NCBI GenBank assembly: GCA_017409845.1
Contig: JAFQRY010000009.1
Coordinates: forward strand, 45,715 to 77,714
Direction of reading: 5' to 3'
Length of the DNA stretch: 32,000 nt
Origin: Clostridia bacterium
Lineage (GTDB): Bacteria > Bacillota > Clostridia > Oscillospirales > Acutalibacteraceae
The notes below the pieces were generated by a model that made no database searches, was not told the origin of the DNA, and was given only the letters and a program-made list of their open reading frames with translations. A program made the position numbers and the translations under genes. Numbering within the stretch: the first letter of the stretch is position 1; each line of letters begins with the position of its first letter. Below are positions 811 through 32,000 of this stretch, piece after piece.

Positions 811-2062
811 GATAATCTCCCTTCATTTTCTTGAAATAATGCATTGCGAATATGATAACCCCGATGCCGAGAAGGGGATAAATTGCAGTAACAAGCATTC
901 CCGCCTTGAGACCGATTTGCTCGGTCATAAGACCCGTTGATGCTGCAAGCTCTGCAGCAAAGCTGCTTTCGGCAACCTTATCAACAACAATTCCGAGAAG
1001 CTGTGGAGCAACCGAGGCTCCGAGGTCGCCGCTTGATGCCATGAGGGCATATGCCGCAACGCCGATTCCGGGGATATTTTCTTCCATCATAATAAGTGTT
1101 CCGGGCCAGAGCATCGAGGTGAAAAGACCCGTCAATATGCATGCGGCAAAAGCAAAAGCAACATTTGACGAAAGTCCGGTAACGAGGTAGCAGACAGCCG
1201 CACCTGCCATGCCGCAAAGGAGAACTCTCATAATGTTCTTGCCGAATTTCGCATAGGAAATTCTTGCAATGCCGAGGAGAATTGCAAACATTGCCATGCC
1301 GAGGATATCGCCGACGGCTTTGTCAATCTGAAGAGCGTTTTCCATATAGGCTGAAACCCAGTTTGACATTGAGTTTTCCGCACAGCTGCCGAAGAAAATC
1401 GAGGCAACGCATATTGCAAGAGCAAGAGTCCTTCTGCGGGTGCCCTTTGTGCCTTCTCCGTCAGAGGAGCTTTCCTCCATGTCGGGCATGGGTGAAAGCA
1501 TAAACATAATTGCAGCGGAAACGGGAAGAACAGCCCAGAAAATTGTGAGCCACATCCAGTTTTCCGAACCGAAAAATCTGAGGAAAAGGGTGCTGATAAC
1601 AACAACCGTAAAAACGCCGAAGGCATAAAGCGAATGAAGAAGGCTCATATCCTTTTGCGGATTATCCGAAGGAATTGCGGCAATAACGGGGCTGAGAAGC
1701 ACTTCTGAAAGTCCTGCCGAAACAGAGAAAATCACCGTTCCGATAACGAGACCTATGTATGCATACTGCGGAAAAAGCTTTGGAAAAACTGCATAGATGA
1801 GCAGACCTGCCGAGGTTATAAGCGGCATGATTCTGACAACTTTTTTAACATTGAAGTGCTTTGAAAAGACGGTAAAGATGAGGTCAACCGTCATCTGGGT
1901 GCAGAAGTTTGTGAGCACAAGAGTGCCTAGAAGGGTGTATGAAATGCCGTAAATATCCTGAAGTGAAGCAAAAAGGAGGGGCGGCAGACTGAAAACCGAT
2001 GACATGGTGAAATATGCCAGATAGCAGGCAAGCTTTGTGCGTTTGAATTTGTTTGCGATCAT
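803..2062 (-). CDS. MFS-type transporter (about 12 TM), probably a sugar or glycoside importer co-transcribed with GH31
   Basis: 419-aa ORF, hydrophobic throughout with a charged central loop (EESSSDGEGTKGTRRR). GGGAG RBS lies 7 nt before the ATG. Translationally coupled to the downstream GH31 gene. Confidence 0.8.
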   Translation of the reverse strand: MIANKFKRTKLACYLAYFTMSSVFSLPPLLFASLQDIYGISYTLLGTLVLTNFCTQMTVDLIFTVFSKHFNVKKVVRIMPLITSAGLLIYAVFPKLFPQYAYIGLVIGTVIFSVSAGLSEVLLSPVIAAIPSDNPQKDMSLLHSLYAFGVFTVVVISTLFLRFFGSENWMWLTIFWAVLPVSAAIMFMLSPMPDMEESSSDGEGTKGTRRRTLALAICVASIFFGSCAENSMSNWVSAYMENALQIDKAVGDILGMAMFAILLGIARISYAKFGKNIMRVLLCGMAGAAVCYLVTGLSSNVAFAFAACILTGLFTSMLWPGTLIMMEENIPGIGVAAYALMASSGDLGASVAPQLLGIVVDKVAESSFAAELAASTGLMTEQIGLKAGMLVTAIYPLLGIGVIIFAMHYFKKMKGDYHG

Positions 2063-2116
2063 GTGAATCTCCCTAAAGTTTTATTTAAAAATAATTATAA
2101 CATATATTAACATAAA

Positions 2117-2162
2117 GTAAAATACCTCTGCGAAAAAAGAATTGTCTTTTTTCGCAGAGGTA
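2117..2162 (-). terminator. Rho-independent terminator ending the aspS-gatA-gatB operon
   Basis: 16-bp stem acctctgcgaaaaaag / cttttttcgcagaggt (2124-2139 / 2146-2161) just after the gatB stop, followed on the minus strand by TTTT. Confidence 0.75.
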
Positions 2163-2168
2163 TCAATG

Positions 2169-3578
2169 TTATTTATTAAGTTCCTTTTCAAGAAGCTCAC
2201 GGATAACAGCGGGGTCGCCGTTGCCTCTGAGCTCTTTCATAACCGAGCCGAAGAGTGACTGCATTGCTTTGACCTTGCCGCTCTTGTAGTCGGCAACCGC
2301 TTTATCGTTTTCGGCGATAACACGGCGGACTGTGTCAAGAATAAAGCCGTCATCAATCTTTGCGTTGAGGCTGTTTTCTTCACAGTATTTGTCAACATCA
2401 ACATCATCTTCAAATACTGCCGAAAGAACCTTTTTGCCTGCCGCACGGGTGATTTCTCCGCTCTCAACGAGCTCAATGATTCTGCTGAGCTTGTCGGGGC
2501 TGATTTCAAGAGAGGCGAGCTCAAGTCGCTTCATCTGACCCATGCATTCGGTGAGAATCCAGCTTGCAACGGTCTTGGGGCTTCTGCCCGATGCAACAAC
2601 CGCATCAAACATATCCGAAAGCTTTCTGTCGGAAGCGAGAACGGATGCTTCTTTTGCGGCAATGCCCATTTCCTCATAGTAGCCGCTCTTCTCTTCGGAG
2701 GTTGCGGGCATGCTTGCCTTGATTTCTGCAAGCCATTCATCGTCAATAACGATGGGCATGAGGTTGGGGTCGGGGAAATATCTGTAGTCCGCTGCGGTTT
2801 CCTTGTTTCTCATGGGGAAGGTGCGGCGCTTGACATCATCCCAGCGGCGGGTTTCCTGAACAAGCATTTCCGTGTGACGCTCGATTGCATCAACGTGGCG
2901 GACCTTTTCAAACTCGATTGCATCCTTGATTTCGGAGAGCGAGCTCATGTTTTTGATTTCTGAACGGACGCCGAGCTCATCCGAGCCCTCAGGGCGAACG
3001 GAAATATTGACGTCGCATCTCATTGCACCTTCTTCGCATTCGGAAATGCCTGCAAACTGAAGGCTTGATTTAAGCTTCTTGAGATATGCGATAACCTCAT
3101 CCGACGAACGGAAATCGGGTCTGCTGACGATTTCGATAAGAGGAACGCTGGTGCGGTTATAGTCAACGAATGAAGTGTTTGTTGCTTCGTCGTGAACAAG
3201 CTTGCCTGCGTCTTCCTCAACATGAATCTGCTTGATGCCGATTGTTCTGTCGCCAATCTGAACGCTGCCGTCAACGCAGATGGGGTGGAACCACTGAGTT
3301 ATCTGATAAGCACAGGGAAGGTCGGGATAATAATAGCTCTTCTTATCGAAGGTTGTGTACTGGTTGATTTTGCAGTTGAGCATGAAGCCTGCCTTGACTG
3401 CAAGCTCGATTGCGTGTTTGTTGGTTACGGGAAGCATACCGGGCATACCGCTGCAGGCAGGGCATACGCAGTCGTTGGGCTCCTTGGGGCTTGAATGACC
3501 GCCGCAGGAGCAGAAAAGCTTTGAATCGGTGGAAAGTTCAACGTGAGTTTCCAAACCTATAACAAGTTCGTATTTCAT
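2169..3578 (-). CDS. gatB: Asp-tRNA(Asn)/Glu-tRNA(Gln) amidotransferase subunit B
   Basis: 469 aa. N-terminus MKYELVIGLETHVELSTDSKLFCSC plus a YqeY-like tail are classic GatB. Its GGAGGTG RBS lies inside the 3' end of the upstream gatA-like gene, 3 nt from that gene's stop. Confidence 0.95.
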   Translation of the reverse strand: MKYELVIGLETHVELSTDSKLFCSCGGHSSPKEPNDCVCPACSGMPGMLPVTNKHAIELAVKAGFMLNCKINQYTTFDKKSYYYPDLPCAYQITQWFHPICVDGSVQIGDRTIGIKQIHVEEDAGKLVHDEATNTSFVDYNRTSVPLIEIVSRPDFRSSDEVIAYLKKLKSSLQFAGISECEEGAMRCDVNISVRPEGSDELGVRSEIKNMSSLSEIKDAIEFEKVRHVDAIERHTEMLVQETRRWDDVKRRTFPMRNKETAADYRYFPDPNLMPIVIDDEWLAEIKASMPATSEEKSGYYEEMGIAAKEASVLASDRKLSDMFDAVVASGRSPKTVASWILTECMGQMKRLELASLEISPDKLSRIIELVESGEITRAAGKKVLSAVFEDDVDVDKYCEENSLNAKIDDGFILDTVRRVIAENDKAVADYKSGKVKAMQSLFGSVMKELRGNGDPAVIRELLEKELNK

Positions 3579-3581
3579 TAT

Positions 3582-4760
3582 TTACACCTCCACGCTTTTT
3601 GCAATGCTGAGAAGCACGCTTTCTTTATATGAATCGGAAATGAGCTGAACACCCTTTGTTACCATTGCGGGAACGCCCGTGATTGAAGGGATTGCGGTGA
3701 AAAGGCTTTCTTCATAAACCTTTTCAAAAGCATCCGAAGCATCATAGGGAGCGTAGGCTGTCTGTGAGCATGCGGGAGCAAGGATTGCATCATATTCTGC
3801 AAGGATTTCTCTTACCTTATCGCAAACAATGCGGCGGATACGGAGCGATTTATCATAGCATTTTTCGTATTTTGCCTTTGCGAGAACATCCGAACCGTAG
3901 ATGATTGTTGCCTTTGCAAGGAAGCCCATTGATTCGGAGCGGCTCTTTACATAAAGCTCGTCAATGTTTTTGTATTCGGGAGTTCTGTAGCCGTATTTAA
4001 CGCCGTCAAATCTTGAAAGATTGTTGGTGGTTTCGGCTGCCATGAGAATCTGCCATGCGGTCTGTGCCTGAGAAGCAACATCAATTGAAACGGTTTCAAC
4101 CGTTGCACCGATTTTCTTAAGGCTTTCCGCATAAGCATCAATGCTTGCTTTGACTTCTGCACCTGCAGCTTCATAAAGCTCTTTTGCAATGCAGATTTTC
4201 ATTGCGGAAACATCTTCGCTTGTTGAATATTCGTATTTTTCGGCAGGAAGGCTTGTGCCGTCCTTGCTGTCGTGACCTGCAATAACGGTGAGGATTTCCT
4301 TTGCATCCTCTGCGTTTGCTGCGGTAACGCCGATCTGCTCACCCGAGCATGCACAGGCGATAATGCCGTAGCGTGAAACTGTGCCGTAGGTAGGCTTTAT
4401 GAAATCAACGCCCGAAACAGCTGCCGCACGGCGGGGTGCACCGTTGAGGTCAACATTGAGAGCAGCCTTTACTTTGCCCGAGGCAACAAGTGCTGCGGCT
4501 GCACCGACAAGCTTGCCGTTTTCGGTTTCGGGAGCAAAATATGAGGTTTCACCGAGAAGGTCCAGACCGAATTCGCCGACATTTGTTTTGCCTGCGATTT
4601 CATAGTCTGCTTTTTCAAGTCTTTCAACAGCCTCCGCACTGAAAAGGGGCTTGAAATTCTCAAGCATTTTTGAGCCTGCGGTTGCGGGAACGCCTTTAAC
4701 AAGAATTGTATCGTCTGCGGCAATTCTGCCTGCCGCATTAATTTCATTAATATAAATCAT
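3582..4760 (-). CDS. GatA-like amidase-signature protein, shortened, with degenerate catalytic motifs
   Basis: 392 aa against about 485 for typical GatA. Family blocks are retained (KMLENF, KTNVGEF, KPTYGTVSRYG, NNLSRFDGVKYGY). GGSSGGS reads GKLVGAA and DTGGSIR reads DLNGAPR. It occupies the gatA slot between aspS-gatC and gatB. Confidence 0.8.
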   Translation of the reverse strand: MIYINEINAAGRIAADDTILVKGVPATAGSKMLENFKPLFSAEAVERLEKADYEIAGKTNVGEFGLDLLGETSYFAPETENGKLVGAAAALVASGKVKAALNVDLNGAPRRAAAVSGVDFIKPTYGTVSRYGIIACACSGEQIGVTAANAEDAKEILTVIAGHDSKDGTSLPAEKYEYSTSEDVSAMKICIAKELYEAAGAEVKASIDAYAESLKKIGATVETVSIDVASQAQTAWQILMAAETTNNLSRFDGVKYGYRTPEYKNIDELYVKSRSESMGFLAKATIIYGSDVLAKAKYEKCYDKSLRIRRIVCDKVREILAEYDAILAPACSQTAYAPYDASDAFEKVYEESLFTAIPSITGVPAMVTKGVQLISDSYKESVLLSIAKSVEV

Positions 4761-4771
4761 TTATCTGCACC

Positions 4772-6880
4772 TCACTTAACAAGTCTGGGAACCTGCCAGC
4801 TGTCTTCCGTGCTCTGGGGAGCACCTTCAAGCAGGTCTTTGCGGGCAAAGGGCTGATTTCTGCCGTCGTTTCTGAGAACATTTGTCATGGGCATAACATA
4901 AACCATGGCTTCAACATCCGCAGTATCGGTCTTTTCAAGCTTTGCTTCGTTTTTACCCATCATATCAAGGATTTTCTGCATCTTTTTCTTTTCGTCTGCA
5001 TCAAAGCAGAGCTCGTTTACGCTTTCAAGCTCCCTGAGCCAGCCCTCCTTGGTCATTGCACCGCCCTTAGCGGATTTGACGGTTGCGGCAAATGCGGAAT
5101 TATCGCTTTCACTGCCGCCGACCTCAACGCTGCCGCCCTTGCCTCTGATGCTGACATTAGCCTCAAAGAGCTGAAGCTCGGTAACTTCGCCGGGTGCACC
5201 GAGCATCTGATCCTGTGCGGTGCCGTCAAGCGGGAATGCGATAACATCACGGATTGTTTCGGTGTCTGCAAGAAGCATGATGATTCTGTCAACGCCGGGT
5301 GCCATACCTGCATGGGGAGGAGCACCGAACTGGAATGCATTATAGAGTGCACTGAAGCGTCTTTCAACCTCATCCTCGCTGTAGCCTGCAATTTCAAATG
5401 CCTTGCGCATGATTTCGGGGCTGTGGTTTCTTACCGCACCCGAAGCAAGCTCGATGCCGTTACAAACAAGGTCATACTGATATGCAAGAATTTCGCAGGG
5501 ATCCATATTCTCAAGTGCATCAAGACCGCCCTGAGGCATTGAGAACGGATTGTGTGTGAATATAATCTTATCTGTTGTTTCGTCACGCTCATACATGGGG
5601 AAATCAACAACAAAGCAGAATTCAAATGAATCATTCTTTATAAGCTCAAGCTCATTGCCGAGCCATGTGCGGATAACGCCTGCATTCTTATCGGCAACAT
5701 CTGCAATGTTATCGCAGATGAAGAAGATTGTTTCGCCTTCCTTAACGCCTGTGAGCTCAACGATTTCTTTCTTTTCTTCTTCTGTCATAACCTTGCTGAT
5801 GGGGTCATCCTTGAAGCCGTAGTTTGCGGCATCAAGAAGGGTAATATGTGCAAGACCTGCCATCTTTGCCTGCTTTGTTGCGAATGCAAGGGATTTATCA
5901 AAGAACCATCTTTCGTTTTTGCAGGGAGCAACGATTGCTCTGACGAATTTATTCATAAAGGGCTTGAACTGAACCCTCTTGAACATATCGGTAAGGTCGC
6001 AGATGATAAGGGGATTGCGAAGGTCGGGCTTATCCGAGCCGTATTTTGCCATTGCTTCCGCATAAGGAATGCGGCGGAAGGGCGAAGCGGTAACCTTCTT
6101 ATCGGAGAAGGTTCTGAAAATATCGCTTACAACGCTTTCGCAGACCTCAAGGACCTCGTCCTGAGTTGAAAATGCCATTTCAAAGTCGAGCTGATAGAAT
6201 TCGCCGGGTGAACGGTCGGCACGGGCATCCTCGTCTCTGAAGCAGGGAGCAATCTGATAATATTTATCGAAGCCCGAAACCATGAGCAGCTGCTTGAACT
6301 GCTGAGGTGCCTGCGGCAGAGCATAAAACTTGCCGGGATGCTTTCTGCTGGGAACAAGGAAGTCTCTTGCACCCTCGGGAGATGAAGCGGTGAGGATGGG
6401 AGTCTGGATATCAAGGAAGCCTCTTTCTTCCATGAGCTTTCTCATGTGACCGATAACCTTTGAACGAAGAAGAATATTCTTGTGAAGGTCAGGATTTCTC
6501 AGGTCAAGGAATCTGTGCTTGAGGCGGATATTTTCGTTTGTGTCGTTTGAGCCGATTTCAAAGGGAAGGTCACGGCTGCATACACCGAGAACATCGAGCT
6601 TATCGCAAACGAGCTCAACAAGACCTGTTTCGATTTTGGGGTTAACCGTGCTTTCGTCACGCTTGGTTACAACGCCCGAAACAGAAATAACCGTTTCCTT
6701 GCTGATGCCCTTAACGAGATTTTCGTCGTGAACAACAACCTGGGTTACGCCCGTTTCGTCACGCAGGTCAACGAAAAGAACGCCGCCGTGGTCACGGATA
6801 ACGTCAACCCAGCCTGCAAGCTCAACTCTCTGACCGATGTGACTCTCTCTTATTTCGTTACATCTGTGAGTTCTGTACAT
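4772..6880 (-). CDS. aspS: Aspartyl-tRNA synthetase with a C-terminal GatC domain (AspRS-GatC fusion)
   Basis: 702 aa. Bacterial AspRS features run from the OB-fold N-terminus through FRDEDARADR to GAPPHAGMAPGVDRIIMLL...IRDVIAFP, up to about residue 585. A G/S/A linker follows, then a 94-aa GatC-like tail (nt 4775-5056). Confidence 0.9.
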   Translation of the reverse strand: MYRTHRCNEIRESHIGQRVELAGWVDVIRDHGGVLFVDLRDETGVTQVVVHDENLVKGISKETVISVSGVVTKRDESTVNPKIETGLVELVCDKLDVLGVCSRDLPFEIGSNDTNENIRLKHRFLDLRNPDLHKNILLRSKVIGHMRKLMEERGFLDIQTPILTASSPEGARDFLVPSRKHPGKFYALPQAPQQFKQLLMVSGFDKYYQIAPCFRDEDARADRSPGEFYQLDFEMAFSTQDEVLEVCESVVSDIFRTFSDKKVTASPFRRIPYAEAMAKYGSDKPDLRNPLIICDLTDMFKRVQFKPFMNKFVRAIVAPCKNERWFFDKSLAFATKQAKMAGLAHITLLDAANYGFKDDPISKVMTEEEKKEIVELTGVKEGETIFFICDNIADVADKNAGVIRTWLGNELELIKNDSFEFCFVVDFPMYERDETTDKIIFTHNPFSMPQGGLDALENMDPCEILAYQYDLVCNGIELASGAVRNHSPEIMRKAFEIAGYSEDEVERRFSALYNAFQFGAPPHAGMAPGVDRIIMLLADTETIRDVIAFPLDGTAQDQMLGAPGEVTELQLFEANVSIRGKGGSVEVGGSESDNSAFAATVKSAKGGAMTKEGWLRELESVNELCFDADEKKKMQKILDMMGKNEAKLEKTDTADVEAMVYVMPMTNVLRNDGRNQPFARKDLLEGAPQSTEDSWQVPRLVK

Positions 6881-6920
6881 TTTATCATACCTCCGTTTGG
6901 TGGTTTATCTTCTTTACAAT

Positions 6921-6983
6921 TAATAATGAAAAATGAATAATGAATAATGAAAAATTAATGATAGGCTGCGCCTATGACCGATT
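6921..6983 (+). repeat. Interspersed repeat family R1 (AATGAATAAT-rich tract + short hairpin + CCGATT), copy a, inside the aspS 5' UTR
   Basis: taataatgaaaaatgaataatgaataatgaaaaattaatgATAGGCtgcGCCTATgaccgatt matches 22353-22408 (...aataatgaataatgaataattaaggAAGGGCtacGCCCTTgcccgatt). The stem sequence differs between copies but pairing is kept. Confidence 0.6.
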
Positions 6984-6998
6984 TGATATTTTGTAAAA

Positions 6999-7215
6999 AC
7001 AAAAAATCCCGGGAACTTCAGAAATGAAATTCCCGGGACGAGTAATTTAACCCGCGGTGCCACCCGTATTGATACATATAAATATGTATCCGCTTTTAGT
7101 ATTATAATGTGGGGAACCGTTGAAGTGTTGCCGTGCTTACTACTTATCCGAAGTGCACTTTCAGCCCATGATGCACTCTCTCTTTCGGACTTTCCAAAAA
7201 AGCCGAGTCTTCAAA
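6999..7215 (-). promoter_or_regulatory. T-box riboswitch leader of the aspS-gatA-gatB operon (candidate Asn specifier)
   Basis: The minus strand carries the T-box core AATACGGGTGGCACCGCGGG (7049-7070). It is followed by terminator TCCCGGGAAtttcatttctgaagTTCCCGGGA + TTTTTTG (7000-7038). Upstream are an AGAGAG motif and an AGTGCA...TGCACT helix. GGC-AAC-A precedes the helix strand CTTCAA, which pairs with TTGAAG at the 5' end. Confidence 0.85.
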
Positions 7216-7219
7216 TCGC

Positions 7220-7248
7220 ATTATAACAAATTGAAAAAGCCTTGTCAA
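7220..7248 (-). promoter_or_regulatory. Consensus sigma-A promoter driving the T-box leader
   Basis: Minus strand TTGACA (7248-7243), 17 nt spacer, TATAAT (7225-7220). Confidence 0.65.
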
Positions 7249-7335
7249 TCGTCATTATTAAATAAATCTGGTTTTTTTGCAGCACTTGATATGTTATATT
7301 TTTACATTAAAATTATAATGCCGCACACAGCCGGA

Positions 7336-7578
7336 TTATTTTATTTCCTGTTCAAGAGAATTGAATTCATCGGTATCAAAGAACTCTGCAAGAGTGATGC
7401 CGAGACCGTCGCATATTATTTTAATCGTCAGCAGCTTGGGGTTCATGCTTCTGCCGTAAAGGATTGCTTTGAGTGATGAAGGCGGAAGACCGCACATGTT
7501 TGCAAGCCTGTTTATTGTTATATTTCTTTCTCCGCAAAGCTGCAATATGCGGTTTTTAACAGCGGTTACAGTATCCAT
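7336..7578 (-). CDS. XRE-family helix-turn-helix transcriptional regulator
   Basis: 80 aa. ...RILQLCGERNITINRLANMCGLPPSSLKAIL... is a typical HTH_XRE (Cro/C1) fold. Confidence 0.8.
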   Translation of the reverse strand: MDTVTAVKNRILQLCGERNITINRLANMCGLPPSSLKAILYGRSMNPKLLTIKIICDGLGITLAEFFDTDEFNSLEQEIK

Positions 7579-7696
7579 AATTCCACATCCGTAATAAGTG
7601 TTTTATTATAGAATATGAAATTCTGATTGAAATTATAGGCGATGCGTGATACCATATAGGCGACACATTGCCCATAAAATGAAAGGACGATAAAAA

Positions 7697-7897
7697 ATGA
7701 ATAATTTGAAAAAACTCAGAGCCGAAAAAAATATTTCCCAGGCAGCTTTATGCGAGGAGCTGAAAAAATTCAACTGTTTTATTGAACGCTCGGCATATTC
7801 CAAATTTGAAACAGGGAGCAGAGAAATGGGTGCAGGAATTCTCACGGTATTTGCTGATTATTTCGGCGTAACGGTTGATTATATTCTTGGCAGATAA
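7697..7897 (+). CDS. XRE-family helix-turn-helix transcriptional regulator
   Basis: 66 aa. MNNLKKLRAEKNISQAALCEEL...SAYSKFETGSREM. Divergent from the 7336-7578 gene. Confidence 0.8.
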   Translation: MNNLKKLRAEKNISQAALCEELKKFNCFIERSAYSKFETGSREMGAGILTVFADYFGVTVDYILGR

Positions 7898-7913
7898 ACT
7901 TCTTCAATTCCTG

Positions 7914-7942
7914 TTTACAAATTGCCATTATTATATTATAAT
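7914..7942 (+). promoter_or_regulatory. Sigma-A-type promoter for the DUF2804-like gene
   Basis: TTTACA (7914-7919), 17 nt spacer, TATAAT (7937-7942). Confidence 0.5.
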
Positions 7943-7978
7943 ACCATTAATAAAAATATATGCATGGAGGGAATAATA

Positions 7979-9070
7979 ATGACAACCGAAAGAACCTATG
8001 TGCCTTTCAATAAATGGAAGGAAAAATCAAAGCAGATTGAGTATACCGAACCCACTCCTCTGCTTTCACCCGACGGAACTCTTCTTGCAAAGGGCTGGGC
8101 AAGACGCAATGTTTTTGAATATAACCGTGACTATGTAAAATCGGGCATTATGAGCCGCAAGGAATGGGATTTTTATCAGATCTGCAACGGCAAGCTCATG
8201 GTGCAGATAAACTTTGCCAACATCCATGTCGGCGGCTTTGTGGGTGCAAAGATTGTTGATATTGAAAAAGGTGTTACAATTGTTGACACCATTCAGTATT
8301 TCCTCGGCACAAACAAGCATGTTCCTCCCGCAAAGGGCGATGTTCCCAACAGATATAAAGACAAGGTCGGCAAGGCTGAATTCGACTTTGACACCAAAGA
8401 AACCTCAAGAAGACTCTGGTATAAAATGGATTTCAAGGGCACTCCCGTTGAATGTGATTTCACCATGGATATCATGCCGGGTCTTGAAAATATTACAACC
8501 GTTCTTCCTTTTGACGAGAGCGACAAGAAATATTTCATGACAACAAAGCAGATGTGCATGCCCTGCGAAGGAACCTTCAAAGTCGGCGGCGATACATATG
8601 TTTTCTCAAAGGCGGATTCCTTCTGTACTCTCGACTGGGGCAGAACAAACACCGTTCATAAGATGGTATGGTACTGGGGTGCGGGCTCATCATATGTAAA
8701 GGGTCCCGACGGAAAGGATCATCTTTTCGGATTTGAAATCACCTGGGCAATCGGTAACGAATCCAATGCAACCGAAACCTGCCTTTTCTATGACGGAAAA
8801 GCTCATAAATTCGGTGCGGTTGATGTTGAAACCTTCCCGAAGCCCGATAAATATATGGAGCCGTGGAAATTCATTTCAGAGGACGGCAGATTCAACATGA
8901 CCATGAAGCCCTTCTATGATTATCACACCGACCTCGACCTCAAGGTTGGCAGAATGCACACTCATCAGGTTCACGGTCTGTGGAGCGGTGATGTCACACT
9001 CGATGACGGCACAAAGCTCGAAATCAAAGATATGTACGCCTTCTGCGAATATGTTGAAAACAGATGGTAA
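7979..9070 (+). CDS. Conserved hypothetical protein, DUF2804-like
   Basis: Start moved to ATG 7979, which follows GGAGGG by 8 nt; the track start at 7922 lies inside the promoter. MTTERTYVPFNK...PLLSPDGTLLAKGWARRNVFEYNRDYVKSGIMSRKEWDFYQI... resembles the DUF2804 family from memory. The family name is tentative. Confidence 0.6.
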   Translation: MTTERTYVPFNKWKEKSKQIEYTEPTPLLSPDGTLLAKGWARRNVFEYNRDYVKSGIMSRKEWDFYQICNGKLMVQINFANIHVGGFVGAKIVDIEKGVTIVDTIQYFLGTNKHVPPAKGDVPNRYKDKVGKAEFDFDTKETSRRLWYKMDFKGTPVECDFTMDIMPGLENITTVLPFDESDKKYFMTTKQMCMPCEGTFKVGGDTYVFSKADSFCTLDWGRTNTVHKMVWYWGAGSSYVKGPDGKDHLFGFEITWAIGNESNATETCLFYDGKAHKFGAVDVETFPKPDKYMEPWKFISEDGRFNMTMKPFYDYHTDLDLKVGRMHTHQVHGLWSGDVTLDDGTKLEIKDMYAFCEYVENRW

Positions 9071-9085
9071 GTGATTAATTAATAA

Positions 9086-9119
9086 CCCCCGTGATTTTCA
9101 TTCTCGAAAATCACGGGGG
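9086..9119. terminator. Bidirectional terminator between convergent genes
   Basis: 13-bp stem cccccgtgatttt / aaaatcacggggg with flanking A/T runs. Confidence 0.75.
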
Positions 9120-9127
9120 ACTTTTCA

Positions 9128-10780
9128 TCAGCAGCAATAGCTTCTCTTTATTTTGTTTGAACCCGTTTTTGCAAAGGGGGTTTCACGGATAACAACCGAT
9201 GAAACCTGCTTGTATGAGGGAAGAGCCTTGCATTCCTCGCGGATTGCATTGAGGAGAGTGTCCGCATCTACGGGCTCGTTGAGGAAAACCTCTGCTTTAA
9301 GAGCTGTTTCATTGCCCTTTTCGTCAACAACGCCGCTGACGATAACCTCTGCAACAGCATCAATATTCTGGATATAGCTTTCGATTTCTTCGGGATAAAT
9401 GTTTTTGCCGTTGCTGAGAACGATGATATTCTTCTTTCTGCCCGAAATAACAAGCTGGTCATCATCGGTAATTCTGCCGAAGTCGCCCGTGTGGAACCAG
9501 CCGTCAACGATAACCTCTGCGGTGAGCTCGGGCTGATTGTAATAGCCGAGCATAACCGTGGAGCTCTTTACGCAGATTTCGCCGATGCCTTCTTCATTGG
9601 GATTTTCGATTCTCCATTCAAGGCAGGGAAGTCTGATGCCTGCGGTGCGGATATCATTATAATCATCATGGTTGCAGCAAACGAGGGGCGAGCATTCGGT
9701 GATTCCGTAGCCGTTGACGAGGGTGATGCCGATGTTATCGAAGAATTCGCCGACCTCGGGGCGGATGGGCGCACCGCCGCAGACTATCTTGATAAGATTT
9801 CCGCCGAACATATCGTGAAGGAACGAGAAAATTTCCCTTCTCTTGTCAACTCCCTGCTGACGGAGTGCACCGCTCTTTGCAACAAGACCTTCAAACATCT
9901 CGCTCATGCCCTTTGCGGCAAGATCACGGATGATTCTTGTGTAAAACATCTCCGCAATTGCAGGAACGATATAAATATAATCGGGCTTATAAATCTGCAG
10001 ATTTTTGAGAATTGCAGGCAGAGCCTCATTTATGCAGAGTGTTGAATGATGATGGAACGATACAAGGATATCAACAATGCTTTCGTATGTGTGGTTATAG
10101 GGAAGAACGGAAAGACCGCAGGAATAGATGGTTGAAACCTGAAGTCCGTAATAGATGCAGGAAACGATATTTTTCTCCGAGAGCATAACGCCCTTTGCCA
10201 TTCCCGTTGTGCCTGAGGTATAAACAAGCATTTTCATATCGTCGGGCTCGTTTTTGCAGGCAAGGTATTCAGTTTTGTCAAGCTTTTCGCCTTCGGCAAG
10301 AACAGAACGGAACGAAACAAATTCGCCGTCATTTTCCGTGCGGTCAAAGCCGATGAAAAGCTTTGCATGCTTCAGCTCGCTGCGGCGTGATCTGAGAAGA
10401 GCCTCAAATCTTTCTTCGTAAAATACAACCTCGCTTTCGCTGTCGTTGAGAAGATAAATGATATCGTTTTCGGGCAGCTCCTTATCGAGGGGAACGAATG
10501 CACCGCTGCTGCGAAGAGAGGTAAAATAAGAAATAATCCATTCAATGCAGTTTCTGCCGATGCAGGCAGTGCGTGTGTTTTTATATCCGTTTGCGGCAAG
10601 GTATGCTCCGAGTGAGCAGACAACATCAAAGAATTCTTTGAATGTATATGATCTGATTTCTTCTCCCTCTTTATATCTGTATGCGATTCCCGCGGGAACT
10701 TCGCTGATTGCCTGATTAATCATATCAGCAATGCTGCTGATGGGGGATACTTCGTAAAGTCTGATGTCGGGTTTTGCCAT
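9128..10780 (-). CDS. AMP-dependent synthetase/ligase (long-chain fatty acid-CoA ligase-like)
   Basis: 550 aa. AMP-binding motif LVYTSGTTGMAKGVMLS, GYGITE, TGDFGRITDDDQLVISGRKKNIIVLSNGKNIYPEEIE. Confidence 0.85.
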   Translation of the reverse strand: MAKPDIRLYEVSPISSIADMINQAISEVPAGIAYRYKEGEEIRSYTFKEFFDVVCSLGAYLAANGYKNTRTACIGRNCIEWIISYFTSLRSSGAFVPLDKELPENDIIYLLNDSESEVVFYEERFEALLRSRRSELKHAKLFIGFDRTENDGEFVSFRSVLAEGEKLDKTEYLACKNEPDDMKMLVYTSGTTGMAKGVMLSEKNIVSCIYYGLQVSTIYSCGLSVLPYNHTYESIVDILVSFHHHSTLCINEALPAILKNLQIYKPDYIYIVPAIAEMFYTRIIRDLAAKGMSEMFEGLVAKSGALRQQGVDKRREIFSFLHDMFGGNLIKIVCGGAPIRPEVGEFFDNIGITLVNGYGITECSPLVCCNHDDYNDIRTAGIRLPCLEWRIENPNEEGIGEICVKSSTVMLGYYNQPELTAEVIVDGWFHTGDFGRITDDDQLVISGRKKNIIVLSNGKNIYPEEIESYIQNIDAVAEVIVSGVVDEKGNETALKAEVFLNEPVDADTLLNAIREECKALPSYKQVSSVVIRETPFAKTGSNKIKRSYCC

Positions 10781-14595: not shown

Positions 14596-15702
14596 TTATT
14601 TTAAAATATTACTTTGATTGAGAATGAGCGTGTTATAAATGAAAAGAACGTCGCAATCCGTGAAGTCAACATATTCGCCGAGAATCTGCGGTGAGATGTA
14701 GCGGATGTCAACAACGGTTATTTTGCTGTAGCCATCGAGCATGAGCGGAACGAGCGACGAGCCGAATGAATCCCTGAAAACGACAAGCTCTCTTTTTTCT
14801 TCTGCAAGCGGATTTTCAATTGTCAGGAAAGCTGCCGCACCTGAAAGATAGATTTCGTATTTGTCATAGCCCGAAAGCTTTGACATATCGTAAACACCCT
14901 GCATTGTTTTGTTTGTTTCAAGGTTAAAAACCTTTGCACCGTCTGTGACGGGGGATTTGAGAGCAATTATTTCGTCGCTCATTTTTCCGAGTGCAAGCCT
15001 CGGAGCATAAACGCCTTCAAAATCAGAAATCTTCTGTGCAGTGTAATCGCTGAAGGGTTTTGATTTAAAGCCCATTTTTTTGCTCAGCCGGTCAATGACC
15101 TTGCCGAGATTTTCCTGCTTCCAATGGGAATCCGTTGTGTAATAATCATCGGCACCAAGGCAGTCAAAAATATCAATATATTCCATATTTTTGATTTCCG
15201 AATGATAAATCTCAAGCATTCTGCCGTAATCAATAGAGGGAAAACCGTTCTTTTCGGCAAGATAATAATTCTTGTCGGGCACAACGGAATAATAAACCCT
15301 TGCGTTTTTGCCTTTGATATATTTTTCAAAGATTGAATTGAATTTAGCGGCGGCATTCTTAACCGAATTTTCACTCAGCACCGACTGAAACTCAGAAATG
15401 TGTCCGTCGGCAAGATAAACCTTGCTGTTGTCGGTCTGACGGAGAAGCTTCATTCGGATTGCGGCGTTGATTGTGCGGAAGCCGTCACGCATGGGGAACT
15501 GGTCTGTCAGATATTTTTCAAAGCCGTCAAAAAAGCTTTTATCCATAACGGATTCAACCGATGCTTCGGGCAGCTGCTGTGCCTTGCGTCTTTCGGAAAC
15601 AAGAATTTCAACGGGTTCTCTTAAAATGCAGGCAGCACCGAGGGTGAGAATGAATGCCGAAAAAATTATTATGCATGCAATGTTGCGTATTTTTTTACCC
15701 AT
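14596..15702 (-). CDS. DHHW/AlgJ-AlgX-like (SGNH-like) extracytoplasmic O-acyltransferase partner protein
   Basis: 368 aa. N-terminal signal anchor (IACIIIFSAFILTLGAACIL). The motif YYTTDSHW is characteristic of AlgJ/PatB/DHHW proteins. The gene sits immediately downstream of an MBOAT gene. Confidence 0.75.
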   Translation of the reverse strand: MGKKIRNIACIIIFSAFILTLGAACILREPVEILVSERRKAQQLPEASVESVMDKSFFDGFEKYLTDQFPMRDGFRTINAAIRMKLLRQTDNSKVYLADGHISEFQSVLSENSVKNAAAKFNSIFEKYIKGKNARVYYSVVPDKNYYLAEKNGFPSIDYGRMLEIYHSEIKNMEYIDIFDCLGADDYYTTDSHWKQENLGKVIDRLSKKMGFKSKPFSDYTAQKISDFEGVYAPRLALGKMSDEIIALKSPVTDGAKVFNLETNKTMQGVYDMSKLSGYDKYEIYLSGAAAFLTIENPLAEEKRELVVFRDSFGSSLVPLMLDGYSKITVVDIRYISPQILGEYVDFTDCDVLFIYNTLILNQSNILK

Positions 15703-15713
15703 TCCGACACCTC

Positions 15714-17111
15714 CTAAAATCTGAAATACAGGAACGGATTATATGAGCCGTCAATGAGATATGCGGTAACTGCAACAAGAAGTGCAAGGATTACTGCGGG
15801 CTGAGCGAGGTTGCATATTTTTTCGCCCGCTTTTGTTGAATCCAGCTTCTCCGCTGCAATTTTAACTGCGGGAGTTGCACCGATTATGCCGATTATAAAC
15901 AGAACGGCATAGCTTCTCAGATAATAAAGCGTTGCTTCGGTGCAGAGGGGATAAGCCGATGTGAACATACCCTTGAAATCATTTGCGATTCCTTCAACGC
16001 CGTTTGCGTTGAATATAACAAAGCCGATAAGAACGGCAAATATAAGATAAATATGACTGATTGCAGACGGAGCTTTTTCCTTGATTTTCTTCGGAATACT
16101 TTTTTCAATCAGCAGAAGTGCGGCAAAATAAAGACCCCAGATGATGAAGGTCCAGTCTGCACCGTGCCAGAATCCCGTGAGAAACCATACAGTCAGAATA
16201 TTAAAGAAAAATCTCGGGGTTTTAACACGGTTGCCGCCCATGGGAATATAAACATAATCCCTGAACCAGCTTCCGAGCGAGATATGCCATCTTCTCCAGA
16301 ATTCCGTAACGGATTTTGAAATATAAGGATGGCGGAAATTTTCGGGGAACTTAAAGCCGAACATGCTGCCGAGGCCTATTGCCATATCGCTGTAGCCCGA
16401 GAAATCAAAATAAACCTGCAGGGAATACGCAACGGCATAAATCCAGAAAAAGAGGGTTGATTTTTCGTCGGTTTCTCTGAAAATTTCACAGAAGCTGCCG
16501 AAGGAGTTTGCGAGAAGAACCTTTTTACCGAGACCGACGGCAAAACGCCTTATGCCGTATGCAAAGCCGTCAATGGTGTGAGTTCTTGAGCGGAGGTCAC
16601 GCTCAATATCCGTATAGCGGACTATCGGACCTGCAACAAGCTGCGGAAAGAGTGACACATAAAGTGCAAGATTAATCGGATTCTTCTGTGCAGGTACGTC
16701 TTTTCTGTAAACGTCAATATTATAGCTGATTGACTGGAAGGTGAAAAAGCTGATGCCGATTGGCAGAGCGATTCCGAGAAGACCGATTTCTGTGTTGAAA
16801 ACGGAATTTGTTACAGAGATAAAAAAGTCCGTATATTTAAAATAAATAAGTGCCGAAAGATTCAGAAGAACCGATGCCCAGAGCAGAATCAGCCGTTTTT
16901 TACCCTCGGCTTTTTCGGTTAGAAGTCCGAAAATGTAGCTGACGGTTATAACCGCAAGCATGAGCACGAGATATTTCGGCTCTCCGTAGAAATAGAAGAA
17001 AAGGCTTGCCGCCAGAAGCCACAGGTTTTTGCCTTTCGAGGGCAGCAAATAATAGACTGCCATCACAATCGGCAGAAACGCAAATAAAAATGTCAGACTT
17101 GAGAAAAGCAC
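15714..17111 (-). CDS. MBOAT-family membrane O-acyltransferase (AlgI/DltB/PatA-like)
   Basis: 465 aa polytopic protein. Signature FWRRWHISLGSWFRDYVYIPMGGNR and FLTGFWHGA. Confidence 0.9.
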   Translation of the reverse strand: MLFSSLTFLFAFLPIVMAVYYLLPSKGKNLWLLAASLFFYFYGEPKYLVLMLAVITVSYIFGLLTEKAEGKKRLILLWASVLLNLSALIYFKYTDFFISVTNSVFNTEIGLLGIALPIGISFFTFQSISYNIDVYRKDVPAQKNPINLALYVSLFPQLVAGPIVRYTDIERDLRSRTHTIDGFAYGIRRFAVGLGKKVLLANSFGSFCEIFRETDEKSTLFFWIYAVAYSLQVYFDFSGYSDMAIGLGSMFGFKFPENFRHPYISKSVTEFWRRWHISLGSWFRDYVYIPMGGNRVKTPRFFFNILTVWFLTGFWHGADWTFIIWGLYFAALLLIEKSIPKKIKEKAPSAISHIYLIFAVLIGFVIFNANGVEGIANDFKGMFTSAYPLCTEATLYYLRSYAVLFIIGIIGATPAVKIAAEKLDSTKAGEKICNLAQPAVILALLVAVTAYLIDGSYNPFLYFRF

Positions 17112-30854: not shown

Positions 30855-31298
30855 ATGTTAAACAATGCCGTTGTAATGGGCAGACTTGTTGCAGACCCCG
30901 AGCTTCGCACTACAGGAAGCGGAATTTCCGTATTATCCTTCACGGTTGCCGTTGACAGAGGCTTTGTCCGTCAGGGCGAAGAGCGTCAGGCAGACTTCAT
31001 TGATATCATTGCATGGAGACAGACTGCTGAGTTTATCAGCAAATATTTCCGCAAGGGCTCAATGATTGCTGTTCAGGGTCGCATCCAGACCAGAACCTAT
31101 GAAGACAGAAACGGAAACAAGAGAAAGGCTGTTGAAATAGTTGCAGATAATGTAAGCTTCTGCGGCTCCAAGTCAGAAAGCGGAACAAATGCTTTCTCGA
31201 GAGATGACAGCTATGCAAATGCTCAGCCCGCACCCTCATATTCGACTGCGGACGAGGGCGATTTCAAGGAAATTCCCGAAGACGATCTCCCGTTCTGA
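30855..31298 (+). CDS. ssb: Single-stranded DNA-binding protein
   Basis: 147 aa. MLNNAVVMGRLVADPELR OB fold and acidic C-terminal tip DDLPF. Confidence 0.95.
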   Translation: MLNNAVVMGRLVADPELRTTGSGISVLSFTVAVDRGFVRQGEERQADFIDIIAWRQTAEFISKYFRKGSMIAVQGRIQTRTYEDRNGNKRKAVEIVADNVSFCGSKSESGTNAFSRDDSYANAQPAPSYSTADEGDFKEIPEDDLPF

Positions 31299-31335
31299 GA
31301 TCGCATAAACTGAAACTGAAAAGGAGGTTAATACC

Positions 31336-31581
31336 ATGGCTTACGACAAAAGCGAAAGAAGACCCAACAAGAAGGGTCGCAGAAAGGTTTGTGCTTTCTG
31401 TGTAGATAAGGTTGAATGCATCGACTACAAGGATGTAAACAGACTCAACAAGTTCACTTCAGACAGAGCAAAGATTCTTCCCCGCCGTGTTACCGGAACT
31501 TGCGCTAAGCATCAGCGTGAGCTGACAACCGCTATCAAGCGTGCACGTCAGATTGCTCTTCTTCCCTACACAAGTGACTGA
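31336..31581 (+). CDS. rpsR: 30S ribosomal protein S18
   Basis: 81 aa. KKVCAFC...[50 protein letters not shown]. Confidence 0.95.
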
Positions 31582-31585
31582 TTAT

Positions 31586-31623
31586 AAAAAAACGCTCCGT
31601 ACCTTCGGGTACGGAGTTTTTTC
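31586..31623. terminator. Bidirectional terminator shared by rpsR (+) and the small-peptide array (-)
   Basis: aaaaaaCGCTCCGTACCttcgGGTACGGAGttttttc. Confidence 0.85.
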
Positions 31624-31652
31624 TTTGTAAGCGGTGATATTGAATTTTAAAA

Positions 31653-31730
31653 TCAGAATACTCTGCAGATGATTGCCACTGCCATTACCGCTGCCACGCA
31701 AATGATTGCTGTTGTTGCTACTGTTACCAT
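31653..31730 (-). CDS. 25-aa hydrophobic peptide, copy 1 (MVTVATTAIICVAAVMAVAIICRVF)
   Basis: Below the ORF-track cutoff; hand-translated. GAGGAGG lies 8 nt upstream of the ATG. Single predicted TM helix. Confidence 0.55.
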   Translation of the reverse strand: MVTVATTAIICVAAVMAVAIICRVF

Positions 31731-31758
31731 TCTTATATCCTCCTCGTTTTTCTTTTAA

Positions 31759-31836
31759 TCAGAATGTTCTGCAGATGATTGCCACTGCCATTACTGCTGC
31801 CACACAAATGATTGCTGTTGTTGCTACTGTTACCAT
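31759..31836 (-). CDS. 25-aa hydrophobic peptide, copy 2 (MVTVATTAIICVAAVMAVAIICRTF)
   Basis: Hand-translated, same RBS. Differs from copy 1 by two synonymous changes (tgc/tgt, gcg/gca) and one V-to-T codon. Confidence 0.55.
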   Translation of the reverse strand: MVTVATTAIICVAAVMAVAIICRTF

Positions 31837-31865
31837 TCTTATATCCTCCTCGTTTTTCTTTTTAA

Positions 31866-31943
31866 TCAGAATGTTCTGCAGATGATTGCCACTGCTGCTA
31901 CGACTGCTACGCAAATGATTGATGTTGTTACTACTGTTACCAT
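31866..31943 (-). CDS. 25-aa hydrophobic peptide, copy 3 (MVTVVTTSIICVAVVAAVAIICRTF)
   Basis: Hand-translated. GAGGT lies 7 nt upstream. Substitutions relative to copies 1 and 2 are all small or hydrophobic (A5V, A8S, A14V, M16A), plus synonymous changes. Confidence 0.5.
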   Translation of the reverse strand: MVTVVTTSIICVAVVAAVAIICRTF

Positions 31944-32000
31944 TTTCTCTACCTCATTTTCAAAGTTTATTTGTTTCAGGTGGTGTTCCCTGTTGACATC

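Follow-up and report, generated by a model that had tools for sequence, protein, structure and literature searches.

The right end of the window (the whole 32,000-nt stretch of DNA that was analysed) carries a tandem array of three minus-strand ORFs of 25 codons, each with an SD sequence and an ATG start, that ends at a terminator common to rpsR. The array is a self-contained, stand-alone operon. It very probably represents an autonomous polycistronic micro-operon with a conserved promoter, a short unstructured mRNA, and one to four peptides of single-transmembrane length, with the copy number changing by unequal crossing-over. The mini-ORFs are real and look translated, and their products are probably membrane-active, single-pass membrane peptides. 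Judging by sequence comparison, they belong to an unannotated family that is so far found only in one group of rumen and gut Clostridia.

The same three ORFs, with exactly the peptides quoted in a preliminary description of this DNA, were recovered on the minus strand at the claimed spacing of 106 to 107 bp. Mini-ORF 1 (31866 to 31943, minus strand; MVTVVTTSIICVAVVAAVAIICRTF, 25 aa) and mini-ORF 3 (31653 to 31730, minus strand; MVTVATTAIICVAAVMAVAIICRVF) were identified by reading and translating the ORFs, and mini-ORF 2 (31759 to 31836, minus strand; MVTVATTAIICVAAVMAVAIICRTF) was recognised as a hybrid copy by comparison of the copies. The starts are spaced by 107 and 106 nt, the 106-nt repeat unit consists of a 78-nt ORF and a 28-nt SD spacer, and Tandem Repeats Finder reported for the window a period of 106, 2.8 copies, 92% matches, and a score of 497. 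The SD of ORF 1 is GAGGT at 31955-31951, 7 nt from the ATG. The spacers between ORF 1 and ORF 2 (31837 to 31865, minus strand) and between ORF 2 and ORF 3 (31731 to 31758, minus strand) each hold the SD GAGGAGG (31851-31845 and 31745-31739, respectively) 8 nt from the ATG, in agreement with the ribosome-binding sites described at 7 to 8 nt. The bidirectional terminator claimed for the end of the array was located at 31594 to 31617 as an intrinsic terminator for both the mini-ORF operon (minus) and rpsR (plus), the downstream neighbour, which is convergent with the array. ORF 1 starts 200 nt from the stop of jag, and the stops of ORF 3 and rpsR are 71 nt apart. Read from beyond the window edge, the order is jag with its own terminator, the promoter region, a 5' UTR of ~65 nt, the ORFs, and the terminator. 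Co-transcription of the mini-ORFs is suggested by the single promoter, the single terminator, and the 28-nt spacers. No gene is called at this place in most contigs, and in the others the ORF is wrongly extended upstream, which bears out the remark that the peptides are invisible to standard ORF callers.

Reading frame, SD, and ATG start are kept in 22 of 22 sense ORFs from ~10 lineages, and since the architecture recurs in every copy, the array is not a chance arrangement. Loss of the frame in relatives had been named as grounds for giving up the peptides; the frame is kept. Length differences among the family ORFs are whole codons, and frame +1 is closed by stops. Selection on the peptide, as had been proposed, is only weakly indicated by the window alone, where the paralogues give a dN/dS of 0.3-1.0, and becomes convincing with the orthologues and the wider family. 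The family dN/dS is ~0.35-0.39, and ORF 1 differs from its orthologue in the two-copy strains by three synonymous and no non-synonymous changes, with a dS within the range of the neighbouring genes. The sense mini-ORFs have a peculiar, host-atypical usage of A-ending codons, and their synonymous sites are constrained towards A.

Two blocks in the promoter and leader are the most conserved parts of the module. The leader core GATGTCAACAGGGAACACCACC at the start of the 5' UTR (31979 to 32000, minus strand, truncated by the window edge) was recognised by cross-lineage conservation and is invariant or nearly so in 10 sequences from ~8 lineages; it occurs once in the window, with zero occurrences expected by chance. 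The variable part of the 5' UTR (31944 to 31978, minus strand), delimited by alignment, includes the SD of ORF 1, of which the GAGG is invariant in the leader alignment. As anticipated in the preliminary description, the promoter lies beyond the right window edge. The rest of the predicted promoter was found just outside the window (L009 10734-10668) and comprises the GTCAAAAATTACA element(s), the -35 zone ACAAA, and the -10 TATTAT. Across lineages, the -10 consensus is TAYYAT, the -35 ACAAA is weak, and the A/T-rich GTCAAAAATTACA upstream is often duplicated 21 bp further upstream, with the distal repeat missing in L112 and L115; the assignment as a promoter is based on consensus and conservation. 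Mean pairwise identity is 0.96 for GTCAAAAATTACA and 0.90 for the block of -10 and core, compared with 0.64-0.79 for the ORF codon positions and 0.55 for the remaining UTR. No conserved RNA structure was found in the 5' UTR using the leader alignment, which places the conservation of the leader in its primary sequence. A conserved 5' hairpin was rejected (three weak pairs without compensatory change or covariation), as was a coding leader: in L113, the leader frame is not that of the peptide and runs into a stop. The long upstream frames in database proteins are an ascertainment artefact, since copies lacking such a frame go uncalled. LytTR, Spo0A, CodY, LexA, and sporulation sigma factors gave no convincing fit to the conserved boxes in a comparison by eye with their consensus sequences. 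Lineages with the distal repeat have another possible upstream promoter, ATTACA-17-TACATT.

Extending past position 32000 and searching for homologues, as had been proposed, brought in jag and the promoter upstream and a family with variable copy number. Homologous modules with one to four ORFs were found in ~10 lineages of related Acutalibacteraceae in several genomic contexts. They are ~0.3-0.55 kb long, begin 10-50 nt from the terminator of the preceding gene, and have the same order of promoter, leader, ORF(s), and terminator. The module stands behind jag in the window, L113/L114, and L161, immediately downstream of yidC-jag in three lineages, and in unrelated contexts in L108, L112, and L115-L118; L110 has two complete modules in tandem. 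An earlier caveat was that the repeat could be part of the 3' UTR of an upstream gene; for jag this does not hold, as jag ends at a terminator of its own and the module is also found where jag is not its neighbour. All members known so far belong to one related clade, in which the kinases adjoining the modules of L108 and L113 are 77% identical, so the different contexts may reflect rearrangement and loss rather than mobility. No partner genes travelling with the module were found, and a kinase partnership was dropped as independent evidence, the 77% identical orthologues counting as one event.

Within the species, the copy number is two or three. ORF 2 is missing in the two-copy strains, and its body resembles ORF 3 and its tail ORF 1, as would be expected of the product of an unequal crossing-over between ORF 1 and ORF 3. 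In the two-copy strains, both IIC motifs of ORF 3 are IVC by double-nucleotide changes. The closest sister species (Jag 96% identical) lacks the module entirely and still has the same hairpin 3' of rpsR, the intergenic region measuring ~0.07 kb without and 0.56 kb with the module. Among 80 jag loci in species-representative genomes, no array was found downstream of jag, and the closest locus was a clean absence. A protein search with the concatenated peptides gave one match only, in the same species. The pattern I-[IV]-C, eight R/Y-type codons, I-[IV]-C-R-x-F-stop matched viral and JGI metagenome contigs at chance level only, the leader 15-mer gave 42 chance matches in viral contigs and no module, and the whole module had no blastn match in phage and plasmid collections.

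The family peptides are 21-27 aa long, with one of 34, and have a GRAVY of 1.7-2.8, a hydrophobic moment of 0.05-0.16, 0-2 charges, and an uncharged run of 21-25 residues. Charge first appears at position 23, if at all, and Asp and Glu are absent. Most members end in R-x-F, RPRHF, or RPCPF (tails in relatives are RPF, RPRHF, RPCPF, RPRPF, RACA, or none), and four lack the polar tail (L108 ORF 2; L118 ORFs 1, 2, and 4). The two Cys and the C-terminal C-R-x-F, described earlier as invariant, are so within the species and not in relatives, where the tail varies; across the family, 6 of 15 members have Ala in place of Cys11, 4 of 15 have Ala or Phe in place of Cys22, and several have no Cys at all; this argues against RiPP or redox roles. 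A single helical face of small residues, considered for the Cys/Ala exchange, was rejected (no 100-degree periodicity, P = 0.66). Searches of NCBIfam, Pfam, PADLOC, and PHROGs at E up to 10 gave, noise aside, no match to described toxin families (Ibs, Ldr/Fst, Hok, TisB, ShoB, TxpA, and others), and a literature search for the peptide strings returned nothing.

In the proposed mechanism, the promoter (TAYYAT -10, weak ACAAA -35, and upstream GTCAAAAATTACA) would drive a short unstructured mRNA from which one to four paralogous peptides would be made, each with a strong SD. Each peptide consists of one uninterrupted hydrophobic stretch of ~22 residues, usually closed by Arg and 2-4 further residues; such a stretch is long enough to span the membrane once and too hydrophobic for solubility. 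Copy number would shift by unequal crossing-over. We tentatively favour a reading in which the peptides stay in the membrane of the producer as membrane-active, toxin- or holin-like products, gated at the promoter by a DNA-binding regulator and not by a cis-antisense RNA. A hypothetical sequence-specific regulator would bind the two hyper-conserved blocks near -47 and +1, and the tandem copies would tune the dose. The variation between two and three copies in the species, and the lack of the module in the sister species, speak for an accessory or toxin-like turnover. On the other side, the strong exposed SDs and the kept extra copies suggest that high-level synthesis is tolerated, and a benign membrane component of high abundance would suit this no less well. 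For the hypothetical regulator, no candidate gene accompanies the module. Alternatively, the conserved +1..+20 block could act at the RNA level, as the pairing site of a trans-acting sRNA from another locus.

The findings add an unannotated family of ~25-aa membrane peptides, clearly constrained at the level of translation, to the poorly studied rumen and gut Clostridia. Tandem tiny hydrophobic ORFs should not be equated automatically with a type I toxin-antitoxin array. The present one has a polycistronic layout and an open mRNA, and its conservation peaks in the promoter and not in an antisense RNA. The compact module with its sharply conserved DNA boxes is easy to test and offers a search handle for members that gene callers miss. 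It is quite improbable, as a bolder proposal, that this is a new type of micro-operon, with membrane-active micropeptides switched purely by a dedicated regulator at GTCAAAAATTACA and CAGATGTCAACAGG, no RNA antitoxin, and functional A-ending codons. If true, uncultured rumen Clostridia would have in it a transcription-gated equivalent of type I toxins, or a proteolipid that permeabilises membranes in a programmed way, and the A-ending codons might tie translation to a particular tRNA pool or keep the mRNA free of U-tracts.

Among the alternatives, a benign small membrane protein that would modulate or stabilise a larger membrane protein by binding to its transmembrane part is somewhat unlikely. 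Small proteins of the MgrB, AcrZ, and KdpF type are models for such partner modulation. Strong, constitutive-looking translation signals, the tolerated multi-copy state, and purifying selection would suit this role, and the candidate partners are a Zn-ribbon Ser/Thr kinase with LRR_5 repeats, whose orthologous gene adjoins the module in two lineages (L108 and L113), or the YidC insertase encoded upstream in the three lineages with yidC-jag. However, the kinase adjacency is one shared-synteny event that is missing from the window species, L112, and L115, the jag adjacency is not general either, no helical face of conserved small residues emerged from the residue volumes, and accessory subunits are usually single-copy, not diversified into two to four paralogues. 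Stand-alone small membrane proteins such as YohP or those like YpdK (enterobacteria, Bacillus) are likewise usually single-copy. They resemble the present peptides in having one transmembrane helix, fewer than 30 aa, no known partner, and in being found only by targeted sORF searches, whereas this family has polycistronic, diversifying paralogues, a hyper-conserved promoter, and A-ending codons. [quoted passage not shown] The peptides are tiny, extremely hydrophobic, and Ibs-like, and are under 70 aa with a predicted transmembrane segment, as in the toxin criterion of Fozo et al. 2010 (PMC2887945). Like ibs/sib and ldr/rdl of E. coli, they are very short (Ibs, 18-19 aa), lie in tandem in one intergenic region, are missed by annotation, and vary in copy number between strains (PMC2887945). 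In those systems, however, repeats of several hundred nt each have a toxin promoter and a fully antisense sRNA gene, whereas the 106-nt unit here has no room for sense and antisense promoters of its own, all copies depend on one promoter, the mRNA is unstructured, and the sequences are not similar. The tandem duplication, the polymorphic presence or absence between strains and species, and the conserved block of 22 nt that opens the 5' UTR, as a possible sRNA pairing site, recall zorO-orzO, tisB-istR, and shoB-ohsC, where an intergenic island is precisely absent in close relatives and a short stretch of the 5' UTR is conserved (for zorO/orzO, 0.3 kb versus 1.2 kb of intergenic DNA; PMC2887945). 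Unlike these, the module has no visible divergent sRNA gene upstream, its ~65-nt 5' UTR is unstructured, and the complements of the 5' block and of the mini-ORF mRNA were both absent within ~42 kb. The earlier observation that no convincing plus-strand antisense promoter is present holds. A weak plus-strand promoter-like site, TTGTAA-17-TAAAAT at 31625-31653, matches at 9 of 12 positions, which is at chance frequency, the equivalent region in other lineages is just 20-30 nt and different, and no antisense promoter-like site recurs between lineages. The mRNA is no more structured than shuffled sequences (MFE z-scores of +0.63 for sense and -0.50 for antisense), with the SDs exposed in open loops. 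At 200 nt and 71 nt, the flanking genes are closer than the Fozo criteria allow (at least 400 and 250 nt), no toxin family matched in NCBIfam or Pfam, and no Rfam antitoxin RNA or other Rfam family matched. Lacking a recurrent antisense promoter, a structured mRNA, per-repeat promoters, and partner genes, the locus does not support a classical type I array. The stretches with which a trans-encoded antitoxin could pair are GAUGUCAACAGGGAACACCACC and the SD/start regions.

Export of the peptides, as SHP-like pheromone precursors, PSM-like surfactants or cytolysins, or leaderless bacteriocins leaving through an ABC exporter, is improbable. The layout of several unannotated ORFs of ~20-25 aa, each with its own RBS and without a signal peptide, is that of psm-alpha of Staphylococcus aureus, in which four ORFs of ~20-22 aa, each preceded by an RBS, share one transcript and a dedicated activator acts by binding to the promoter (PMC6428751). 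PSMs, in contrast, are amphipathic, soluble, exported by the Pmt ABC transporter, and AgrA-dependent, whereas the peptides here are of transmembrane type and non-amphipathic (moment 0.05-0.16, 0-2 charged residues, so almost uncharged), would be insoluble outside the membrane, and have no exporter or agr-like genes linked to them in the window. Their size is close to that of SHP precursors (PMC7564271); as in Rgg/SHP systems, hydrophobic ORFs of ~22-25 aa are missed by gene callers, and some members end in ...AIIFG or ...AIIF, similar to ...IIVIVVG. Unlike SHP1358 (MGKKQILLTLLLVVFEGIIVIVVG), however, they have neither the basic N-terminus (Lys) nor the acidic residue before the mature part, and where SHP genes adjoin rgg, the neighbours here are jag and rpsR or unrelated genes. 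The diversified paralogues, the two upstream direct repeats 21 bp apart, and the ABC_tran, ABC2_membrane, and LytTR regulator genes 3-5 kb downstream in L108 would fit export, but no rgg/RRNPP regulator, exporter, immunity, or LytTR gene was found in the window or in most relatives, and the distal repeat is missing in L112 and L115. Very improbable is a locus that is not a peptide gene at all, that is, a structured or repetitive RNA, a jag 3' UTR, an attenuator leader, or an opposite-strand gene. All mini-ORF codons are R-Y-N, which leaves the opposite strand open as well and with genome-typical T-ending codons, the synonymous sites are constrained towards A, and Rfam Thr_leader gave a weak match (23.7 bits, E = 0.046). 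Yet 5 of 10 lineages have no antisense ORF at all and no such ORF has an SD, compared with 22 of 22 sense ORFs with SD and ATG, and an opposite-strand gene was therefore dropped. There is no structure signal or alternative fold, the Thr_leader match is far below the 55-bit threshold and falls on the terminator, jag ends at its own terminator, and with rpsR convergent there is nothing to attenuate. A RiPP precursor using the two Cys, or the modified-peptide precursor named in the preliminary description, is the least probable. The multiple precursor-like copies and the two Cys, invariant within the species, would agree with it, but their lack of conservation across the family largely refutes it, there is no leader/core organisation, and the module comes with no radical-SAM, Lan, YcaO, peptidase, or exporter gene, with no maturase or exporter nearby in the window or in most relatives.

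The minus strand of positions 31000-32000 in the window was read directly and searched for repeats. Three ATG-start ORFs of exactly 25 codons each lie on the minus strand at 31943-31866 (mini-ORF 1), 31836-31759 (mini-ORF 2), and 31730-31653 (mini-ORF 3), and Tandem Repeats Finder returned a single array at 31651-31944 with a period of 106, 2.8 copies, 92% matches, and a score of 497. The ribosome-binding motif (SD) is GAGGT, 7 nt before the ATG, for ORF 1 and GAGGAGG, 8 nt before the ATG, for ORFs 2 and 3. A bidirectional terminator at 31594-31617 (both strands), a 9-10-bp G+C-rich hairpin with T-runs on either side, ends both the array and the convergent rpsR. The ORFs, their peptides, SDs, and terminator were thus borne out as given in the preliminary description.

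The locus was extended using contigs whose SSB and RpsR are identical to those of the window. The host belongs to the Acutalibacteraceae (Clostridia), is uncultured, and comes from the ruminant gut. Past the window edge, the minus strand carries rpmH-rnpA-yidD-yidC-jag, with dnaA approximately 3 kb further. The jag gene has its own intrinsic terminator (10799-10775 in L009, a same-species contig), followed by approximately 170 nt of A/T-rich DNA before the array. Within the species, three copies were found in the window, L003, L004, L007, L009, and L012, and two copies in L011, L013, and L014, all in frame. In the three-copy arrays, the middle copy combines a copy-3 body with a copy-1 tail, as would fit a product of unequal crossing-over in a two-copy array. 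In L015, the closest species-representative genome (Jag 96% identical), the whole promoter and array segment is missing; L015 4838-4925 compared with L009 10247-10807 gives a clean presence/absence polymorphism of approximately 0.5 kb. The jag terminator of L015 is a different hairpin, followed within approximately 30 nt by the same rpsR terminator as in the window species. In two further contigs, L008 and L010 (10247 onwards), RpsR is identical, yet the genes downstream of rpsR are quite different (LRR_5 proteins in one, a GDSL lipase and an M50 peptidase in the other). Within this group, the region 3' of rpsR, close to the replication origin, is a hotspot of rearrangement.

The 25-mer gave almost nothing in standard protein resources. 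An exhaustive profile search was run over 1.8 billion representative proteins, and the contigs of the matches were then fetched (L-numbers). The matches were ORFs wrongly extended upstream by gene callers and ending in clear homologues, and the fetched contigs carry modules in about 10 lineages. The common anatomy is a conserved promoter/leader, then 1-4 ORFs that each have a separate SD, and finally an intrinsic terminator; the ORFs have 21-27 codons (one has 34), with spacers of 24-33 nt. Three ORFs lie behind jag in L113/L114 and two behind jag in L161; L117 and L108-L111 have two, L116, L115, and L112 one each, and L118 four that are more divergent. L110 holds two complete modules in tandem, with a second complete promoter/leader (1135-1227) directly after ORF 2 and no terminator between, so whole modules, not ORFs alone, can duplicate in tandem. 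In L114, the third ORF (632-707) runs off the contig end and carries a Lys within its hydrophobic segment (…AAVMKIAII…), which could reflect either decay of this copy or a sequencing variant. Flanks vary, including jag, an IS66 tnpB remnant, a melibiase gene, LRR-type genes, and a Zn-ribbon Ser/Thr kinase gene. The kinase gene is downstream of the module in L108 and L113; since the two kinases are orthologues with 77% identity, this adjacency represents one shared-synteny event, and the genomes that carry the known members are all fairly close relatives. The L108 module (237-819) lies between the tnpB remnant, which immediately precedes it, and a downstream signalling cluster (1578-10196) comprising the Zn-ribbon kinase with its LRR_5 repeats, an ABC-2 transporter, a LytTR response regulator, two FHA proteins, a second kinase, and a PP2C phosphatase. 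IMG/VR viral contigs, GenBank phages, PLSDB plasmids, and JGI metagenome contigs yielded no module, and all members known to date belong to a single clade of uncultured Clostridia. The module is a real, new, and unannotated family, and its layout does not qualify as a type I toxin-antitoxin, PSM, SHP, or RiPP system as these are defined.

Across all lineages, 22/22 sense ORFs begin with ATG and carry a correctly spaced SD-like motif; ORF lengths differ by whole codons, and stop codons occur in frame +1. For 15 distinct ORFs, dN/dS in the peptide frame was 0.35-0.39. Copy 1 of three-copy and two-copy strains differs by three synonymous and no non-synonymous changes, with dS at 0.16 (range of neighbouring genes, 0.02-0.23). 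Every codon is R-Y-N, so one opposite-strand frame is automatically open and hydrophobic; an antisense gene was rejected, antisense ORFs being absent in 5/10 lineages, never preceded by an SD, and variable in start and length. A coding upstream leader was also rejected, as the frame in the L113 leader is interrupted and out of register with the peptide. Given the SD and ATG in all sense ORFs, the whole-codon lengths, the dN/dS, and the inconsistent antisense ORFs, translation of the minus-strand 25-mers is well supported, and a non-coding repeat is highly improbable. In the window ORFs, GTT was used for 0/18 Val codons versus 0.67 genome-wide, ACA for 11/11 Thr, and GCA for 15/16 Ala. In eight other lineages, A was the third base in 0.60 of Val, 0.89 of Thr, and 0.88 of Ala codons, against 0.13-0.54 in neighbouring genes. 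This excess of A-ending codons over host genes holds in every lineage (window 31653-31943; L108, L112, L113, L115-L118, L161) and indicates that synonymous sites are constrained, so dN/dS probably underestimates the selection acting on the peptide.

The promoter/leader is the most conserved part of the module. The alignment had 10 sequences, and identities were computed on 8 lineages with one sequence per lineage. Mean pairwise identity was 0.96 for the GTCAAAAATTACA element, 0.90 for the block TAYYAT-N-CAGATGTCAACAGGGAACACC, 0.55 for the remainder of the 5' UTR, and 0.70, 0.79, and 0.64 for ORF 1 codon positions 1, 2, and 3. In the hexamer TAYYAT, A2 and T6 are kept in all lineages, with a conserved ACAAA 17 nt upstream; judged by consensus, the pair resembles a putative sigma-A-type promoter whose -35 is weak. 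Just outside the right edge of the window, the 12-nt TCAAAAATTACA is present as two identical direct copies 21 bp apart (L009 10734-10723 and 10713-10702, minus strand); the proximal one ends 28 nt ahead of the -10-like TATTAT. All lineages keep the proximal copy of the A/T-rich element unchanged, and most aligned lineages have a second copy 21 bp upstream (missing in L112 and L115, imperfect in L108 and L117). A further TCAA box, the third, is TCAACAGG, located 53 nt downstream from the proximal TCAAAAATTACA copy and facing the same side of the helix. In the conserved segment that directly follows the -10, no conserved secondary structure was seen, no Rfam family was found at threshold, and the whole transcript folded no better than shuffled sequence (z = +0.63), with the SDs exposed. 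The simplest reading is that the promoter/leader is recognized by a putative sequence-specific DNA-binding regulator. Alternatively, a trans-acting RNA might pair with the initial 20 nt of the mRNA; in approximately 42 kb of sequence from the species, nothing complementary to these 20 nt occurs.

The module is very probably an autonomous single-promoter polycistronic operon, in which one promoter would drive an mRNA for 1-4 paralogous single-pass membrane peptides and unequal crossing-over would alter copy number and so vary dosage. Family peptides have a GRAVY of 1.7-2.8, a hydrophobic moment of 0.05-0.16, and 0-2 charged residues; charges first appear at Arg23, if at all, leaving an uncharged run of 21-25 residues. 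These values describe one membrane-spanning helix essentially without a soluble part. A helical face lined by small residues was looked for among family members and rejected. Met1, Thr7, Val15, Ala19, and Ile20 are invariant in 15 members. The cysteines, earlier described as invariant, are so within the species but not in the family, where Cys11 is Ala in 6/15 and Cys22 is Ala or Phe in 4/15; these replacements make disulfide, metal, or thioether roles unlikely, and a RiPP precursor is likewise very improbable. We tentatively favor peptides that would remain in the membrane of the producer and act there as membrane-active, toxin-like, or holin-like agents, with synthesis gated at the promoter. 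The leading rival, in which the peptides harmlessly modulate a larger membrane protein, is rather unlikely.

Features for recognising type I toxin-antitoxin loci were defined by Fozo et al. (PMC2887945), and the module resembles such arrays in size, hydrophobicity, tandem occurrence, and strain-specific presence. However, its repeat is only 106 nt, whereas each of theirs is a complete toxin-plus-sRNA unit; antisense RNA is expected at type I loci, but the antisense strand of the module has no recurrent promoter-like site; their mRNA is expected to be structured, but that of the module is unstructured; and they are isolated from flanking genes, whereas the module distances are 200 and 71 nt. 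The peptides matched no described toxin family. The type I array, one of the options in the preliminary description, is therefore not supported, and a type I toxin with a putative trans RNA encoded elsewhere is unlikely. The layout is closer to the psm-alpha operon, where several tiny ORFs share one transcript and the promoter is activator-bound (PMC6428751), but the peptides of the module lack amphipathicity and have no linked exporter. From SHP pheromones (PMC7564271) the peptides are set apart by their charge pattern and by the rgg neighbour that is obligatory for SHP genes. An exported peptide is quite improbable.

Elsewhere in the window, a 702-aa aspartyl-tRNA synthetase ORF (4772-6880, minus strand) with a C-terminal GatC domain (Pfam GatC, residues 627-695) lies directly upstream of gatA and gatB (3582-4760 and 2169-3578), forming what appears to be an AspRS-GatC fusion in a cluster of transamidation genes. 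At 14596-17111 (minus strand), a DHHW-family protein adjoins an MBOAT membrane O-acyltransferase, and the pair looks like a putative cell-envelope O-acylation system.
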